This document shows positions 1 to 4,063 of a stretch of DNA of 4,063 bases, in pieces. A model generated the notes under the pieces. That model saw only the letters and a program-made list of their open reading frames with translations, was not told the DNA's origin and ran no database searches. Positions within the stretch are counted from its first letter, which is position 1. Each line of letters starts with the position of its first letter. The position numbers and the translations under genes are program-made. This DNA is from a plasmid, in NCBI RefSeq assembly GCF_057098645.1, contig NZ_JBXSPU010000006.1, one strand, 5' to 3'.

Positions 1-810
1 ACGTAGTGTGTACGAAGTTGCGTTGTCAGGAAGCCCGATATTCAGAAGGTCAGCCACACGGCGGGCAGGCTCTGTCAGCCCTCCGTTCCTGAGTTCGGTG
101 CGGGAAATCTGTATTTCCAGGTTAAGCCTGTTAATCAGACGATTCTGTTCGCCGCGTTCTGTTTCGATACCGCGTGTTTCCATCGCACAGGCAGACTTTC
201 CGAGGTGAATACCAGGCGTTTTCTCAAGCCCCTGTCGCTCGTATGAACGATGGTCTATCTCTTCCTGATAACCGGCGTTCGCCAGTGCCCTGTTTGCATG
301 GTCAGCCCATGATGCCCGCCACGTCTCGGCATGTGTCCGGTCGTTCCAGTCCCTGACCTTTCCGCTGAACCCAGCAGGTCCGATAGCCCTCGTGGTCAGC
401 ATGATGTGCGCATGGGGATTTGTTTTATCCATGTGATGGAACGCCACATCAGCAATCATGCCCTGACTGACAAAGTTTTCTCTGACAAAGGCGAGAACGG
501 TTTCCCGTGCGGCATCCTGCGGCAGTTCGTGGGGGATGGCGAGTTCAATTTCCCGCGCAAGTTGTGAGTTCTTCCGGCGTTCGGCCTTCTCAACGGCATT
601 CCAGAGTTCGGCACGGTTCGTACACCAGGCAGGGGCGGTGGCGGGGGTCAGAATCACAGCCTCAGCCACACCGCTTTTGCGGGTGTAGTCGTGAGTCAGT
701 CCGGTACGCTCATCAAGCATCAGTGAACCGGAACGATAGGCAGCGGAAGCTACGGCGCTGTAGCCGCTGCTTCTGGAGATAATTTTCATGCTGAGATGAT
801 AAATCGCCAT
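1..810 (-). CDS. mobA: MobA/MobL-family (MOBQ) relaxase, N-terminal relaxase domain; partial, ORF runs off the left window edge
   Basis: Minus-strand frame is open from ATG (plus 810-808) to position 1, 270 codons with no stop (translated by hand). The product starts MAIYHLSMKIISRSSGYSAVASAAYRSG..., with Tyr at residue 25, a His-rich motif NPHAHIMLT, and ...WADHANRALANAGYQEEIDHRSYERQGLEKTPGIHLGK.... These match my recollection of RSF1010 MobA (MAIYHL..., catalytic Y25, HxH motif, ...WADHANRALERAGHDARIDHRTLEAQGIERLPGVHLG...). An upstream in-frame stop lies at 916-918. The gene is absent from the supplied ORF track because it has no in-window stop. No strong Shine-Dalgarno precedes the ATG. Confidence 0.85.
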   Translation of the reverse strand, partial: MAIYHLSMKIISRSSGYSAVASAAYRSGSLMLDERTGLTHDYTRKSGVAEAVILTPATAPAWCTNRAELWNAVEKAERRKNSQLAREIELAIPHELPQDAARETVLAFVRENFVSQGMIADVAFHHMDKTNPHAHIMLTTRAIGPAGFSGKVRDWNDRTHAETWRASWADHANRALANAGYQEEIDHRSYERQGLEKTPGIHLGKSACAMETRGIETERGEQNRLINRLNLEIQISRTELRNGGLTEPARRVADLLNIGLPDNATSYTLR

Positions 811-988
811 TTCTGCCGTAATGCCTTTTTGTAGTTTTCTTTCAGCCCCGCAGGGCGCACACAATCGAAACGGAGTGGAGATTGTATAAGTGCGCACTTC
901 GTGATTTGCCGTGCATTATGCCAGCTCAGTTTTTAAACTACCAGTGACGCGCTAAAATGCGATTTTTCATCGCGCACGGAGTTACATC
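811..988. other. Candidate oriT and divergent mobA/mobC promoter region with MOBQ-like nic-core motifs
   Basis: Intergenic region between divergent mobA and mobC. Plus strand 887-897 reads TAAGTGCGCAC. Minus strand (reverse complement of 852-860) reads GTGCGCCCT. Both resemble the RSF1010/R1162 nic core TAAGTGCGCCCT as I recall it. The two motifs sit in an imperfect inverted repeat: GCGCACACAAT (855-865) and ATTGTATAAGTGCGC (881-895). A -10-like TAAAAT lies at 953-958 upstream of mobC. Confidence 0.5.
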
Positions 989-1243
989 ATGAGCAGAACG
1001 CTCGAACAGAAGATTGCTGATGCTGAGGCGAGATTACAGCGCCTGAAGGCGAAGAGCCGGAGCCTGGACACAGCGCAGAAGGTTGTTGTGGGTGCTGCAT
1101 TGCTGGCAAAGGTCAGAAAGCCGGAGGAGGTGCAGTTGCGTGCCTGGTTACTCCAGTTCCTGAAGGCAGAGGTGACACGACAGGCTGATGTGACGCGCAT
1201 ACTGCCGCTGATTAACGAGCTGGAGGCGCTGCCAGAACAGTGA
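989..1243 (+). CDS. mobC: MobC-like mobilization accessory protein (relaxosome component), 84 aa
   Basis: ATG at 989 with a GGAG Shine-Dalgarno at 978-981 (7-nt spacer) and TGA at 1241-1243. The product contains ...AQKVVVGAALLAKV..., resembling the RSF1010 MobC motif ...RKVLVGAMILAKV... as recalled. Size and position (divergent from mobA across oriT) fit mobC. Confidence 0.65.
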   Translation: MSRTLEQKIADAEARLQRLKAKSRSLDTAQKVVVGAALLAKVRKPEEVQLRAWLLQFLKAEVTRQADVTRILPLINELEALPEQ

Positions 1244-1252
1244 TTGTATCGT

Positions 1253-1311
1253 CCGCTCGCCGCAGCCCCAGCGACCGAGCGTTAGCGAGCGAGTGGGCGA
1301 GGAAGCGGAAG
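1253..1311. other. Segment resembling the ColE1/pMB1 region downstream of ori (putative single-strand initiation / primosome assembly site)
   Basis: CCGCTCGCCGCAGCCCCAGCGACCGAGCGTTAGCGAGCGAGTGGGCGAGGAAGCGGAAG aligns at roughly 80% identity to the pBR322/pUC backbone sequence CCGCTCGCCGCAGCCGAACGACCGAGCGCAGCGAGTCAGTGAGCGAGGAAGCGGAAG, recalled from memory. That sequence lies in the region I remember as containing a PriA-dependent pas/rri site. It contains the inverted repeat GCTCGC...GCGAGC. Confidence 0.4.
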
Positions 1312-1483
1312 TGAATCAGTCGCCAGGTTGAGCACATACGCACGGTTTTTCGGCAGGTGATATGCGCTGAACCCGCATGAATACTGGGTTTCCACAGGGT
1401 TGGAGGGGGTGTATTCGAAACTTGCAATTCTGCTTTATTGCAACGCATTGTTTTTATTGGTTTTTTGTTTTCAGCACCCCAAG

Positions 1484-1492
1484 TTATCCACA
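1484..1492 (+). promoter_or_regulatory. DnaA box, perfect match to consensus TTATCCACA
   Basis: TTATCCACA at 1484-1492, immediately upstream of the AT-rich region and iterons, the typical place for a DnaA box in Rep_3 origins such as pSC101. Confidence 0.6.
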
Positions 1493-1499
1493 GGCTCGC

Positions 1500-1590
1500 C
1501 GTTAAGTTTTTAAGATCTTATTTTTAGATCTTTTTTTTTAAAACCTTTTTAGGTCTTGTAACACCATGATTTTAAAGATGTTCTGGCAAG
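1500..1590. other. AT-rich region of oriV (candidate DNA unwinding element) with two AGATCT (GATC) sites
   Basis: Strongly AT-rich, with T-runs (e.g. 1531-1539). AGATCT occurs at 1513-1518 and 1526-1531. It lies between the DnaA box and the iterons. Confidence 0.5.
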
Positions 1591-1594
1591 ATAA

Positions 1595-1678
1595 GTGGAG
1601 CTTTTGGGGGTGAAAGGTGGAGCTTTTGGGGGTGAAAGGTGGAGCTTTTGGGGGTGAAAGGTGGAGCTTTTGGGGGTG
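1595..1678 (+). repeat. Iterons: three perfect tandem 22-bp direct repeats (GTGGAGCTTTTGGGGGTGAAAG) plus a fourth 18-bp partial copy; RepA binding sites of oriV
   Basis: Perfect copies at 1595-1616, 1617-1638 and 1639-1660; partial copy at 1661-1678. The repeats are contiguous with no spacers and lie about 100 bp upstream of repA. A 22-bp unit is roughly two helical turns. Confidence 0.9.
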
Positions 1679-1687
1679 TAATCCACA
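1679..1687 (+). promoter_or_regulatory. DnaA-box-like sequence TAATCCACA (8/9 to consensus) abutting the last iteron
   Basis: TAATCCACA at 1679-1687 has one mismatch to TTATCCACA. The iteron array would then be flanked by DnaA boxes. Confidence 0.35.
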
Positions 1688-1698
1688 GAAAAAGGGGG

Positions 1699-1728
1699 TT
1701 GCAAAAAAAAAACTTCCACCCATATGAT
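1699..1728 (+). promoter_or_regulatory. Candidate sigma70 promoter of repA
   Basis: TTGCAA at 1699-1704, an 18-bp spacer, then TATGAT at 1723-1728, about 50 bp upstream of the repA ATG. Confidence 0.4.
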
Positions 1729-1776: not shown

Positions 1777-2478
1777 ATGTCAGATCTGATAGCTTACAAA
1801 TCAAACGCCCTTATCGAGGCAAGCTACAAGCTCACTTTGCAGGAACAGCGCTTCCTGCTGGTCTGTATCAGCCGCCTAAAATCCGGAGAAGATTCCCCTT
1901 CGCCGGATGAACAAAAAACCATGACCATCACGGCTGCAGAGTTTCATGATGCCTTTCCTGACATGGGACGGCAGCACGCTGAAGCTAGGCTCAAGGAAGC
2001 GATAGATCGCCTCTGGGACAGGTCAGTAATCATCAAGAACGAGGAAAAACGAGAAGAGTTCCGCTGGGTGCAGTACCGGGCGCAGTATTTCAAAGGTGAG
2101 GCGAAAGTAGATATCACCTTCTCCGATGCCATCATGCCGTATCTGACACAGCTCAAGGGGCAGTTTACGCGGGTAGTCGTGAAGAACGTCTCCAGCCTTT
2201 CCAGCACCTACAGCATCCGCATTTACGAGCTGCTCCAGCAGTTCCGCAGCACCGGTGACAGAACGATAGCTATCGATGATTTCCGAACCATGCTTGCCGT
2301 TGAAGATAAATATCAACAATTCAAAGACTTGAATAAGATGATAATCAAGCCAGCCATCGCCGAACTGAACGAAAAAAGCGATCTGGTTGTAGCTGTTGAG
2401 ACGATCAAAAAGGGGCGCACGGTTGTAGCCCTGCATTTTCGCTTCAAGGAAGACAAACAGATCAAGATGACGATCTAA
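1777..2478 (+). CDS. repA: Rep_3-family plasmid replication initiator (iteron-binding RepA), 233 aa
   Basis: ATG at 1777 and TAA at 2476-2478. The product has MSDLIAYKSNALIEASYKLTLQEQRFLL... and ...ITFSDAIMPYLTQLKGQFT...YSIRIYELL..., matching the pattern of pSC101-type RepA as recalled (MSELVVFKANELAISRYDLTEHETKLIL..., ...LTFSEEILPYLFQLKK...YSMRIYEWLL...). It sits directly downstream of the iterons. Confidence 0.9.
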   Translation: MSDLIAYKSNALIEASYKLTLQEQRFLLVCISRLKSGEDSPSPDEQKTMTITAAEFHDAFPDMGRQHAEARLKEAIDRLWDRSVIIKNEEKREEFRWVQYRAQYFKGEAKVDITFSDAIMPYLTQLKGQFTRVVVKNVSSLSSTYSIRIYELLQQFRSTGDRTIAIDDFRTMLAVEDKYQQFKDLNKMIIKPAIAELNEKSDLVVAVETIKKGRTVVALHFRFKEDKQIKMTI

Positions 2479-2499
2479 AATCGATTTTAAGGCACCTAA

Positions 2500-2523
2500 A
2501 ACGCTCCCTGCTGCGTTTTTTTT
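2500..2523 (+). terminator. Possible weak intrinsic terminator of repA
   Basis: Short stem AACGC (2500-2504) / GCGTT (2513-2517) with an 8-nt loop, followed by a run of 8 T (2516-2523), about 25 nt after the repA stop. The stem is short, so this is low confidence. Confidence 0.3.
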
Positions 2524-2585
2524 GTGTTAGTAGTGCGAAGGTACTATTGAAGTGAAAAATTGCGTCAAAAACGCTCTGATGCAGC

Positions 2586-2612
2586 GAAAAAAGACCCCCC
2601 AATTTTTGGGGG
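2586..2612 (-). terminator. Intrinsic terminator on the minus strand (for the long minus-strand ORF / mobA)
   Basis: On the minus strand: CCCCCAA-AAA-TTGGGGG hairpin (plus 2596-2612), then G, UC and a U7 tract (plus A-run 2586-2592). It lies about 115 nt downstream of the ORF stop at 2726. Confidence 0.5.
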
Positions 2613-2725
2613 CGGAAAAACAAAACTATGCTTGCGTTATGTGAGTGTGCTTCTTGCATTCATCCCTGTCGATGAACATCGACGAACATAACACGATGTT
2701 AAACAAAACAAAATATTGTTCACAT

Positions 2726-4063
2726 TCACTGTGACCAACCGCGATCATGTCTCCTCTCGGTGGTGTGTGTTCGTGCATCTTCCTCGCGCTGCCATTCCTC
2801 CCAGGTACGATTAAAACCCAGCGAGCGGAACAGATGATCCGGCTGTTTTTCTGGTGTGTTGACGGCAGCAAAAAGCGGTGCCTCACGGGTTTTCAGATGA
2901 AACTGCATCAGTTCTGGTGCAGGTGATATGTGGCTGTCTGCATCGTGATTTACGGCAACACCATACCCTGCATACCGTAACCCCTTATCGGTCAGCGCAC
3001 TGATGACCAGATGCCTGTTATCGGCTGAGGGAACGGCAAACGCGGGATACAGCGTACCATTAAGCCGGATAACACCGCCCAGAGAGTCATCCACGCCCAT
3101 GACCAGCAAAAGCTGAAGCTGGCGGGTTTCCCGGTCGACAGAACTCATGACCGGCATCAGCGTCGGTGGCAGACGTCCCTGCATAAAATCCACCTTCCTT
3201 GCCGCTGGTGATGGCATGGCTGGCTGGCGGTCTTCTCCAAGACAGAAAGACTCCGGCCATGTCTTCGGCTGGCGGAGATTGCGGGTATGTTGCGGCCATG
3301 TCTGGCAAACCTGCGTCAGCAGTTGCTCAAAGGTTGCAGAGGAATAAACACGTTGCAGTGGCGGACGTTGGCCGATTTCGCTTCGGTCACAGATATAACC
3401 ACTCCTGTCACGCATTAAATCAACACTCTCAAAGATTCTGGTGCGGTATTTCTCCAGCTCGTTCCCCCAGAGCGTATATTCTCCGTTCCGGTTGTGAAGC
3501 AGAAGGTAACAGGTCATTTCCCCGTTACCAGGCATGGGAGCCTCGCCATACCCCGTAACGACTGCTCTCAGCACCCCTGAATCCATAACGGCATTGTCAT
3601 TTTTCCTGAGCTGCTCCGCGCGACTACGTTCAGTATCTTCCTGTTCCTTCCGGCGCAATTCCTCTTCACGTTTAAGCAACTGGGCTCTGAGAGCTGCAAG
3701 GCCGGATTCCCCCCACTGCTGCCACTGTTTTTCAAATGCCATCTGACTCGCGGGAATGTCCTGTTTCTCCACCTTCCGGTAATGCTGTCGTAATTTTTCC
3801 ATTTGCTGGCTCAGAGACTGGATTTTTCCCTGCTCACTACGGTATTCCGGTGCCGCCCATTGCATCAGGGGAATACGGGAAAAACCGGACGAAAACGGCG
3901 ATGATTTTTTCAGGCTGGCAGCATGGCTCATCGCTTCCTTTCGTTCGGTGTTCAGCTCTTCCCAGCGTCTGCGCGTCGCCTGCATATCTGCCATCATCGA
4001 CATGGCATTACTGGTGAGTTTCCATGCCGAGTTACTGTCCTTCGGCAACGCTTCGATAATGTC
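2726..4063 (-). CDS. mobA: Long ORF with complete 3' end and frame open to the right window edge; most likely the C-terminal ~445 codons of mobA continuing across the junction of a circular molecule, otherwise a 5'-truncated gene of unknown function
   Basis: Minus-strand frame has no stop from 4063 down to TGA at 2726-2728. E. coli-like codon usage (CTG-rich). The supplied track starts at a TTG at 4048, but five further sense codons (DIIEA) precede it up to the edge, and no in-window ATG has a convincing Shine-Dalgarno. The last codon at the right edge (4061-4063) and the mobA codon at the left edge (1-3) are both complete, so on a 4063-bp circle the two ORFs join in frame (...SYTLR|DIIEALPKDSNSAWKL...) into about 715 aa. 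The N-terminal ~150 residues of this part are charged and helical (e.g. LLKREEELRRKEQEDTERSRAEQLRKN); the remainder is globular with no Walker A or other motif I can recognise. Confidence 0.6.
   Translation of the reverse strand, partial: DIIEALPKDSNSAWKLTSNAMSMMADMQATRRRWEELNTERKEAMSHAASLKKSSPFSSGFSRIPLMQWAAPEYRSEQGKIQSLSQQMEKLRQHYRKVEKQDIPASQMAFEKQWQQWGESGLAALRAQLLKREEELRRKEQEDTERSRAEQLRKNDNAVMDSGVLRAVVTGYGEAPMPGNGEMTCYLLLHNRNGEYTLWGNELEKYRTRIFESVDLMRDRSGYICDRSEIGQRPPLQRVYSSATFEQLLTQVCQTWPQHTRNLRQPKTWPESFCLGEDRQPAMPSPAARKVDFMQGRLPPTLMPVMSSVDRETRQLQLLLVMGVDDSLGGVIRLNGTLYPAFAVPSADNRHLVISALTDKGLRYAGYGVAVNHDADSHISPAPELMQFHLKTREAPLFAAVNTPEKQPDHLFRSLGFNRTWEEWQREEDARTHTTERRHDRGWSQ

Follow-up and report, generated by a model that had tools for sequence, protein, structure and literature searches.

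A 4,063-bp mobilizable plasmid of Escherichia coli cut within its relaxase gene: one 715-residue MobA carrying a C-terminal module homologous to the tail of Sog

The 4,063-nucleotide stretch analyzed here (contig NZ_JBXSPU010000006.1 of assembly GCF_057098645.1; hereafter "the window", always at its full length) is almost certainly the whole of a circular, cryptic, mobilizable plasmid of Escherichia coli belonging to the MOBQ41 (pIGWZ12) family, opened by a cut within the relaxase gene. The two minus-strand open reading frames (ORFs) that run off its edges are one gene, mobA (annotated as mobQ), which encodes a relaxase of 715 residues. Translation of the minus strand from 810 to 1 gives 270 stop-free codons beginning with the ATG at 810–808 (the 5′ part, 1..810, codons 1–270), and translation from 4063 to 2726 gives 445 codons followed by a stop at 2726–2728 (the 3′ part, 2726..4063, codons 271–715), the second continuing from position 1 over the circular junction. 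Both ORFs have complete codons at the window edges, and joining 810..1 to 4063..2726 produces an in-frame ORF of 2,148 nucleotides with the terminal stop only. The original prediction that the two truncated ORFs fuse in frame on a circular molecule is borne out, its coordinates and lengths (270 and 445 residues) being exact on re-translation.

The circularity itself is established by independent records. A megablast search of PLSDB with the whole window as query matched 643 records, at least eight of which are E. coli plasmids recorded as complete circles of exactly 4,063 bp and approximately 100% identical to the window; each 4,063-bp record aligned in two pieces, its linearisation point being different from that of the window. 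Apart from one mismatch, at position 2392, NZ_CP099758.1, NZ_CP018942.1, NZ_CP054167.1 and AP024699.1 have the sequence of the window rotated to another starting point, and the 4063|1 junction is therefore internal to these four records. The mobQ coding sequence is uninterrupted in NZ_CP099758.1 (760–2907) and in NZ_CP018942.1 (950–3097), where it measures 2,148 nucleotides and yields WP_001029354.1, a "MobQ family relaxase" identical to the fused 715-residue product; in NZ_CP054167.1 the coding sequence of the same protein is flagged as spanning the record origin. Thus the large ORF at the right edge is the relaxase C-terminus, contiguous in WP_001029354.1, and not cargo, as had also been proposed. 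A direct overlap of 5–199 nucleotides between the window ends, of the kind left by assemblers on circular contigs, was looked for as had been advised and none was found. The claim that genes and intergenic regions account for the entire molecule holds as well: mobA (2148), the origin of transfer (oriT; 178), mobC (255), the replication origin region (533), rep (702) and the 3′ intergenic region (247) add up to 4063. Moreover, the junction-side segment 3900–4063 (164 nucleotides) is present in 430 of the 5,426 complete E. coli genomes, in which 493 of its 497 places are plasmid-borne. MOB-suite types the identical records as mobilizable, MOBQ and rep_cluster_1778, and the fused relaxase is 95–100% identical to hundreds of relaxases from plasmids of 4.06–4.09 kb. 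Two edge-truncated ORFs of unknown function on a short contig can, as here, be one gene split by the arbitrary cut of a circular replicon, and joining them removes an apparent unknown cargo gene.

MobA can be divided into three regions. The relaxase domain (residues 1–213, window ~172–810, minus strand) contains the Pfam family MobA_MobL PF03389 (residues 18–213, E 6.5e-70) and scores 264.1 bits against NCBIfam MobQ NF041496, above the curated family threshold of 200. In a sequence search of the PDB, the nearest solved structures are NES of pLW1043 (4ht4, E 3e-27) and R1162 MobA (2ns6, E 3.4e-10). The catalytic residues Y25, E87/E89 and H125/H133/H135 are present, align to Y25, E74/E76 and H112/H120/H122 of R1162 MobA, and are those also named as relaxase residues for the family (PMC6856555). 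It is followed by a charged linker (residues 214–434; minus strand, 3566..4063 and on into 1–171) in which 39% of the residues are E, K, R, Q or D; it returned just weak coiled-coil-type noise in Pfam (FUSC, FlxA) and is probably helical or disordered. An internal in-frame start, for instance at Met430 before the tail module, was considered for a short product resembling SogS or RepB′; no convincing ribosome-binding site was seen, and this candidate was discarded.

The third region, a module at residues 437–704 (2762..3565, minus strand), is homologous to approximately residues 946–1243 of the 1254-residue Sog protein of IncI1 plasmids. A tblastn search with the 445-residue fragment matched about 2,000 large conjugative plasmids, with 44.7% identity (E ~1e-65) over fragment residues 165–434 (MobA 435–704), and the genes under these matches are annotated "LPD7 domain-containing protein" or "DNA primase". 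By BLASTP the module is 45% identical to IncI1 Sog (E 4e-72); divided into three consecutive blocks, the alignment shows identities of 36%, 30% and 70%, the final block (MobA residues 576–704, 129 residues, 69.8%) being the most conserved. In the IncI1 plasmid pFAM22871_2 the matching gene encodes the 1,254-residue Sog homologue and lies between traJ/traK and the DotI/IcmL-like traM. Indeed, the recognizable domains of Sog, namely DUF5710 (8–59), the primase domain Toprim_3 (266–365) and LPD7 (~774–861), are all located upstream of the shared region. The published description of the MOBQ4 C-terminus as having "low homology to SogL primases" (PMC6856555) is true but, from these domain positions, concerns the non-primase tail common to SogL and SogS.

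This module has a narrow distribution. Among 1.84 billion representative proteins searched exhaustively, just 106 matched, the full-length ones being either MOBQ relaxases (P0122, P0189) or Sog-like proteins of 1,065–1,423 residues; it forms the extreme C-terminus of all full-length homologues but P0191, whose sequence stops inside the module. A profile alignment was built from 15 members, none of which has a Pfam family over the module, and neither full MobA nor the module profile gave a PDB sequence match to it. The AlphaFold2 model calculated from the 15-sequence alignment (predicted local distance difference test score, pLDDT, 82; predicted template modelling score, pTM, 0.71) is rich in β-structure with a long terminal helix. 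When this model was compared by Foldseek with AFDB50, the only matches were MOBQ4 relaxases and the C-termini of Sog, SogS and TraC primases, with a probability of 1.00 to SogS and to "DNA primase" entries. Four homologues on conjugative plasmids were examined (pFAM22871_2 and three more distant ones); each lies at the sog position of a Dot/Icm-like (I-type) tra cluster, and for two of them the record carries the type MPF_I (mating pair formation, MPF). A check had been advised of whether homology to relaxases extends beyond residue 270; it does in MOBQ4 relaxases, with the tail also matching IncI1 Sog and not the RSF1010 primase.

Two further observations concern this part of the protein and its homologues. 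Around MobA residues 486–500 (window ~3380–3420), approximately 45 residues of the first β sub-domain of the module, including the motif LVK..GDVVTLTL, are absent by comparison with Sog and the MOBQ42 relaxases, and the pLDDT of the model is lower there (52–77). IncI1 Sog and the homologues P0123, P0128, P0133, P0186 and P0214 give sub-threshold NCBIfam matches (E 1e-4 to 7e-13) that fall on the C-terminal ends of two MOBP models, TraI_MobP_relax (~400–502) and MobP1 (~236–312). These weak matches probably correspond to the LPD7 repeat, and suggest, at the level of sequence, that conjugative primases and MOBP relaxases have further domains in common.

Mobilisation of MOBQ41 plasmids depends on relaxase and oriT, is enhanced by MobC and shows a strong cis preference; the most efficient helpers are the MPFI plasmids R64drd11 and pCTX-M3, and the MPFT plasmid RP4 likewise mobilises them (PMC6856555). 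Extrapolating from what has been shown in the family, the N-terminal MOBQ domain of MobA, with the help of MobC, would nick the 178-bp oriT, and MobA would stay covalently attached to the 5′ end. The coupling protein and type IV secretion system of a co-resident conjugative plasmid, best of all an I-type one such as that of IncI1 R64, would export MobA together with the strand. The tail of MobA would bring the protein to the secretion apparatus of the I-type system, bind the transferred single strand, or both, and would not prime DNA synthesis. Its most likely role appears to be to let the I-type coupling and secretion apparatus recognise the relaxase, which would thereby be docked to its helper, because Sog is itself exported by the I1 system and the shared module is always C-terminal. 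SogL and SogS reach recipients in many copies and independently of DNA (PMC6112013; PMC8406263). The module is not the sole determinant, since RP4 mobilises these plasmids too. A literature search for a translocation signal in the Sog C-terminus returned nothing relevant.

We tentatively propose, as a possibility that could well prove wrong, that the MOBQ4 tail is a captured Sog C-terminus and that the plasmid enters I-type (Dot/Icm-like) systems by mimicking a native exported protein. If true, this capture would explain why MPFI plasmids are the best helpers, and the module would represent an unnamed domain of approximately 200–300 residues, absent from Pfam, that serves substrate recognition by type IVB secretion systems and is common to relaxases and primases. 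The Sog-like tail thus provides a hypothesis, open to direct test, of how the choice of a helper's secretion system is made by a mobilizable plasmid. What is mildly new is the placement of the Sog homology at the non-primase extreme C-terminus; the description of the family neither places this homology nor links it to helper choice (PMC6856555).

Less likely in our view, but a serious alternative, the Sog-like tail could be a domain that binds or protects single-stranded DNA in the recipient, coating or anchoring the incoming strand, and not a secretion or docking signal. The structural matches are non-significant and mostly to barrels that do not bind DNA, and a secretion signal would explain no less well why the module is consistently found at the very C-terminus of two protein classes that are unrelated. 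Binding of the strand and docking to the helper are not mutually exclusive.

Very improbable is the view that MobA is a relaxase-primase fusion of the RSF1010/IncQ type, the C-terminal 445 residues of which would prime the complementary strand in the recipient or at the vegetative origin. As reference we used a 709-residue MobA reconstructed from an IncQ1 plasmid; its N-terminus matches the sequence of the R1162 crystal structure at 100% identity. The size of about 709 residues given for RSF1010-type MobA in the original prediction was thus correct. The fusion would account for the similar lengths (715 and 709 residues), for the homology of the N-terminal domains, where the alignment of the two proteins is confined to residues 1–233 (34% identity, E 7e-32) and where 2ns6 is matched, and for the reported low homology to SogL primases (PMC6856555). 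However, beyond the relaxase domain no significant similarity between MobA 214–715 and IncQ1 MobA 187–709 was detected by BLASTP (best E 1.3) or by phmmer --max, run with its filters off. No primase family, neither RepB nor Toprim, was found in MobA by Pfam, NCBIfam or PDB sequence searches, in which residues 214–715 matched no other family either. Searching the PDB with the tail, alone or as a profile, gave no sequence match, and the part of Sog that it resembles is residues 948–1243, far from the Sog Toprim domain. The plasmid, moreover, has a Rep_3/iteron replication system of its own. The reading as a relaxase-primase is already contradicted at this level of comparison, and the label "RSF1010-type" fits the relaxase domain of MobA and not the remainder of the protein. 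Annotation of mobB occurs in no related record, while the out-of-frame ORFs inside mobA were not searched for homologues; the small ones are open in five plasmids, the sequences of which are 96–98% identical, so that their openness carries little information.

There is next to no chance that the window was sliced out of a larger replicon or multimer, or arose from one by faulty assembly, and that the in-frame join is a coincidence: two open ends on the same strand share a frame with a chance of 1/3 and the window lacks an overlap marking circularity, but this explanation is refuted by the many independent complete circular 4,063-bp records that span the junction with identical sequence, by the identity of the fused protein to a RefSeq protein and by the almost exclusively plasmid-borne occurrence of segment 3900–4063.

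The remainder of the mobilisation region consists of oriT and mobC. The intergenic region between mobA and mobC (811..988) has the 178-bp length of the oriT that was cloned from MOBQ4 plasmids and shown to be functional (PMC6856555). It is 98–99% conserved in four MOBQ41 relatives and contains imperfect inverted-repeat arms at 849–860 and 890–901. Within it, a sequence resembling a MOBQ nic core, TAAGTGCGC (887–895, plus strand), occurs once against 0.01 expected; it is the sequence that we take to be the RSF1010 nic core, and it lies inside a perfect 12-bp palindrome, AAGTGCGCACTT (887–898). It is a candidate for the nic site. The core GTGCGC reads alike on both strands, and the nicked strand can therefore not be read from the sequence. 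The gene mobC (989..1243, plus strand; WP_000091746.1 in RefSeq), divergent from mobA, encodes a relaxase accessory protein of 84 residues; its ORF is intact and 96–99% conserved in four relatives, and its product matches no hidden Markov model of NCBIfam. In the family, mobC is a non-essential enhancer of transfer (PMC6856555).

Downstream of mobC, the oriV region (1484..1728, plus strand) combines a DnaA box, TTATCCACA, found by repeat analysis (1484–1492), an A+T-rich stretch with GATC sites (~1500–1560) upstream of the iterons, four 22-bp iterons (GAAAGGTGGAGCTTTTGGGGGT; 1590–1677) with additional degenerate flanking copies, and a promoter-like site retrieved by a promoter scan upstream of rep (1699–1728, plus strand). 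The same origin architecture has been described for pIGWZ12, and replication of MOBQ41 plasmids is of the theta type and iteron-controlled (PMC6856555). The gene rep (1777..2478, plus strand), annotated in RefSeq, encodes a Rep_3-type initiator of 233 residues. Its NCBIfam matches (RepM, 2.2e-51; RepE, 8.2e-21) both remain under the family cut-offs, and the Rep_3 (PF01051) label is taken from PMC6856555 and from MOB-suite rep_cluster_1778. By extension from the family, the initiator would bind the four 22-bp iterons beside the DnaA box and the A+T-rich region to start theta replication. The one position at which the window departs from the four otherwise identical 4,063-bp records, 2392, falls in rep codon 206, where the window has G and all four records have A; the change turns ACT into GCT, that is T206A in Rep relative to WP_001281395.1.

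The genes rep and mobA converge on an intergenic region of 247 bp (2479..2725) with a terminator-like hairpin for each gene, at 2498–2519 (plus strand) for rep and at 2612–2596 (minus strand) for mobA. It also contains a 10-bp tandem unit, TCGATGAACA/TCGACGAACA (2669–2688), present in two copies in the window and in three copies in pIGWZ12 and the relatives L008 and L010; the third copy represents 10 bp of the length gap to the relatives of 4,072–4,087 bp that have it. The RefSeq genes of the plasmid and of the related records are rep, mobC and mobQ only, with no cargo gene, and the ORFs in 2479–2725 are broken by frameshifts, indels or stops in relatives. The molecule is thus, as predicted, a cryptic replicon of 4.06 kb with these three genes alone annotated, and the absence of a cargo gene is consistent with the cryptic name of the family. 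The broader claim that no accessory gene exists agrees with the annotation and with the broken spacer ORFs, and stands less firmly with respect to a "hypothetical protein" that the family description gives as the fourth of the MOBQ41 backbone and that mostly goes unannotated (PMC6856555), which we did not locate in the window and which is not described in the supplements of that paper.

Two overlapping ORFs in the spacer between mobC and rep, one of 42 residues (1377–1505, plus strand) and one of 78 residues (1212–1448, minus strand), are mostly open in five diverged plasmids, the second having one stop in L010. Either might be the unannotated "hypothetical protein" of the family. We do not call them genes, as they overlap a conserved segment of non-coding appearance and openness is insufficient evidence. 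Approximately 90 non-coding nucleotides in the same spacer (1253–1343) recur at 80–90% identity in no fewer than 5,000 plasmid records, some of them Col-type plasmids of very small size (1.5–6 kb), and this segment is unannotated among the matches listed. It resembles the pBR322/ColE1 sequence 'ccgctcgccgcagccgaacgaccgagcgcagcgagtcagtgagcgaggaagcggaaga', which we take to lie in the region of the primosome assembly (PriA) sites, and may be a candidate single-strand initiation signal. A scan of the whole window against Rfam (E ≤ 1) revealed no RNA family.

The plasmid type is already known and was experimentally characterised between 2006 and 2019. Plasmids of the pIGWZ12/MOBQ41 group were reportedly studied by Zaleski et al. 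in 2006 and 2015. Found in approximately 8% of complete E. coli genomes, the type is common and biologically ordinary. The MOBQ41 family, with pIGWZ12 as its prototype, comprises cryptic plasmids of small size from enterobacteria that share a Rep_3 initiator, the MOBQ4 relaxase MobA, a divergent, non-essential mobC and, between the mob genes, a 178-bp oriT (Garcillan-Barcia et al. 2019, PMC6856555); Supplementary Table S2 of that paper lists WP_001029354.1 as the relaxase of the MOBQ41 plasmid pEC147-4. The mobilisation module (mobA, oriT and mobC) is 96–99% identical in nucleotide sequence to pIGWZ12 (NC_010885.1) and three other MOBQ41 plasmids. The rep gene with the iteron/ori region (1244–2478) is just 72–78% identical to the same four plasmids. 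From these alignments the replicon, and presumably with it the iteron incompatibility specificity, has either diverged or been swapped while the mobilisation backbone stayed conserved.

Comparison with known systems places the plasmid nearest to the other members of its family. It shares with pIGWZ12 and the MOBQ41 plasmids pEC147-4, pEC224_6 and p806883-9-2019d the gene set and the order rep, iterons, mobC, 178-bp oriT and mobA, and pEC147-4 and pEC224_6 encode the identical relaxase (WP_001029354.1), whereas the MobA of pIGWZ12 has 719 residues instead of 715. One 10-bp unit fewer at 2669–2688 underlies the difference between 4,063 bp and the 4,072 bp of pIGWZ12, and the single-nucleotide polymorphism leading to Rep T206A is the sole difference from the 4,063-bp records. 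The MOBQ42 or ColE2-like colicin plasmids (ColE9-J; pUC4224_2, NZ_CP104474.1) have a close mobA N-terminal domain, mobC and oriT, and the C-terminal part of their relaxase is homologous over its full length (38.8% identity, E 1e-86). They differ by a ColE2-type Rep and a colicin/immunity/lysis operon, neither of which is present in the window, and measure ~6.7 kb. RSF1010/R1162 shares the MOBQ relaxase fold, the same catalytic Tyr, Glu and 3-His motifs, a divergent mobC and a MobA of similar size, but its IncQ1 MobA ends in the RepB primase and is overlapped by mobB, whereas the MobA described here has no primase similarity and ends in the Sog-like tail. Finally, Sog (SogL/SogS of R64 and ColIb-P9) and the Sog-like TraC/Pri proteins of MPFI plasmids are homologous to the MobA tail over their last ~300 residues, the similarity starting only at about Sog residue 946–948 and Toprim having no Pfam match in MobA. 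The module is C-terminal in both proteins; it is preceded by DUF5710, Toprim and LPD7 in Sog and by the relaxase domain in MobA.

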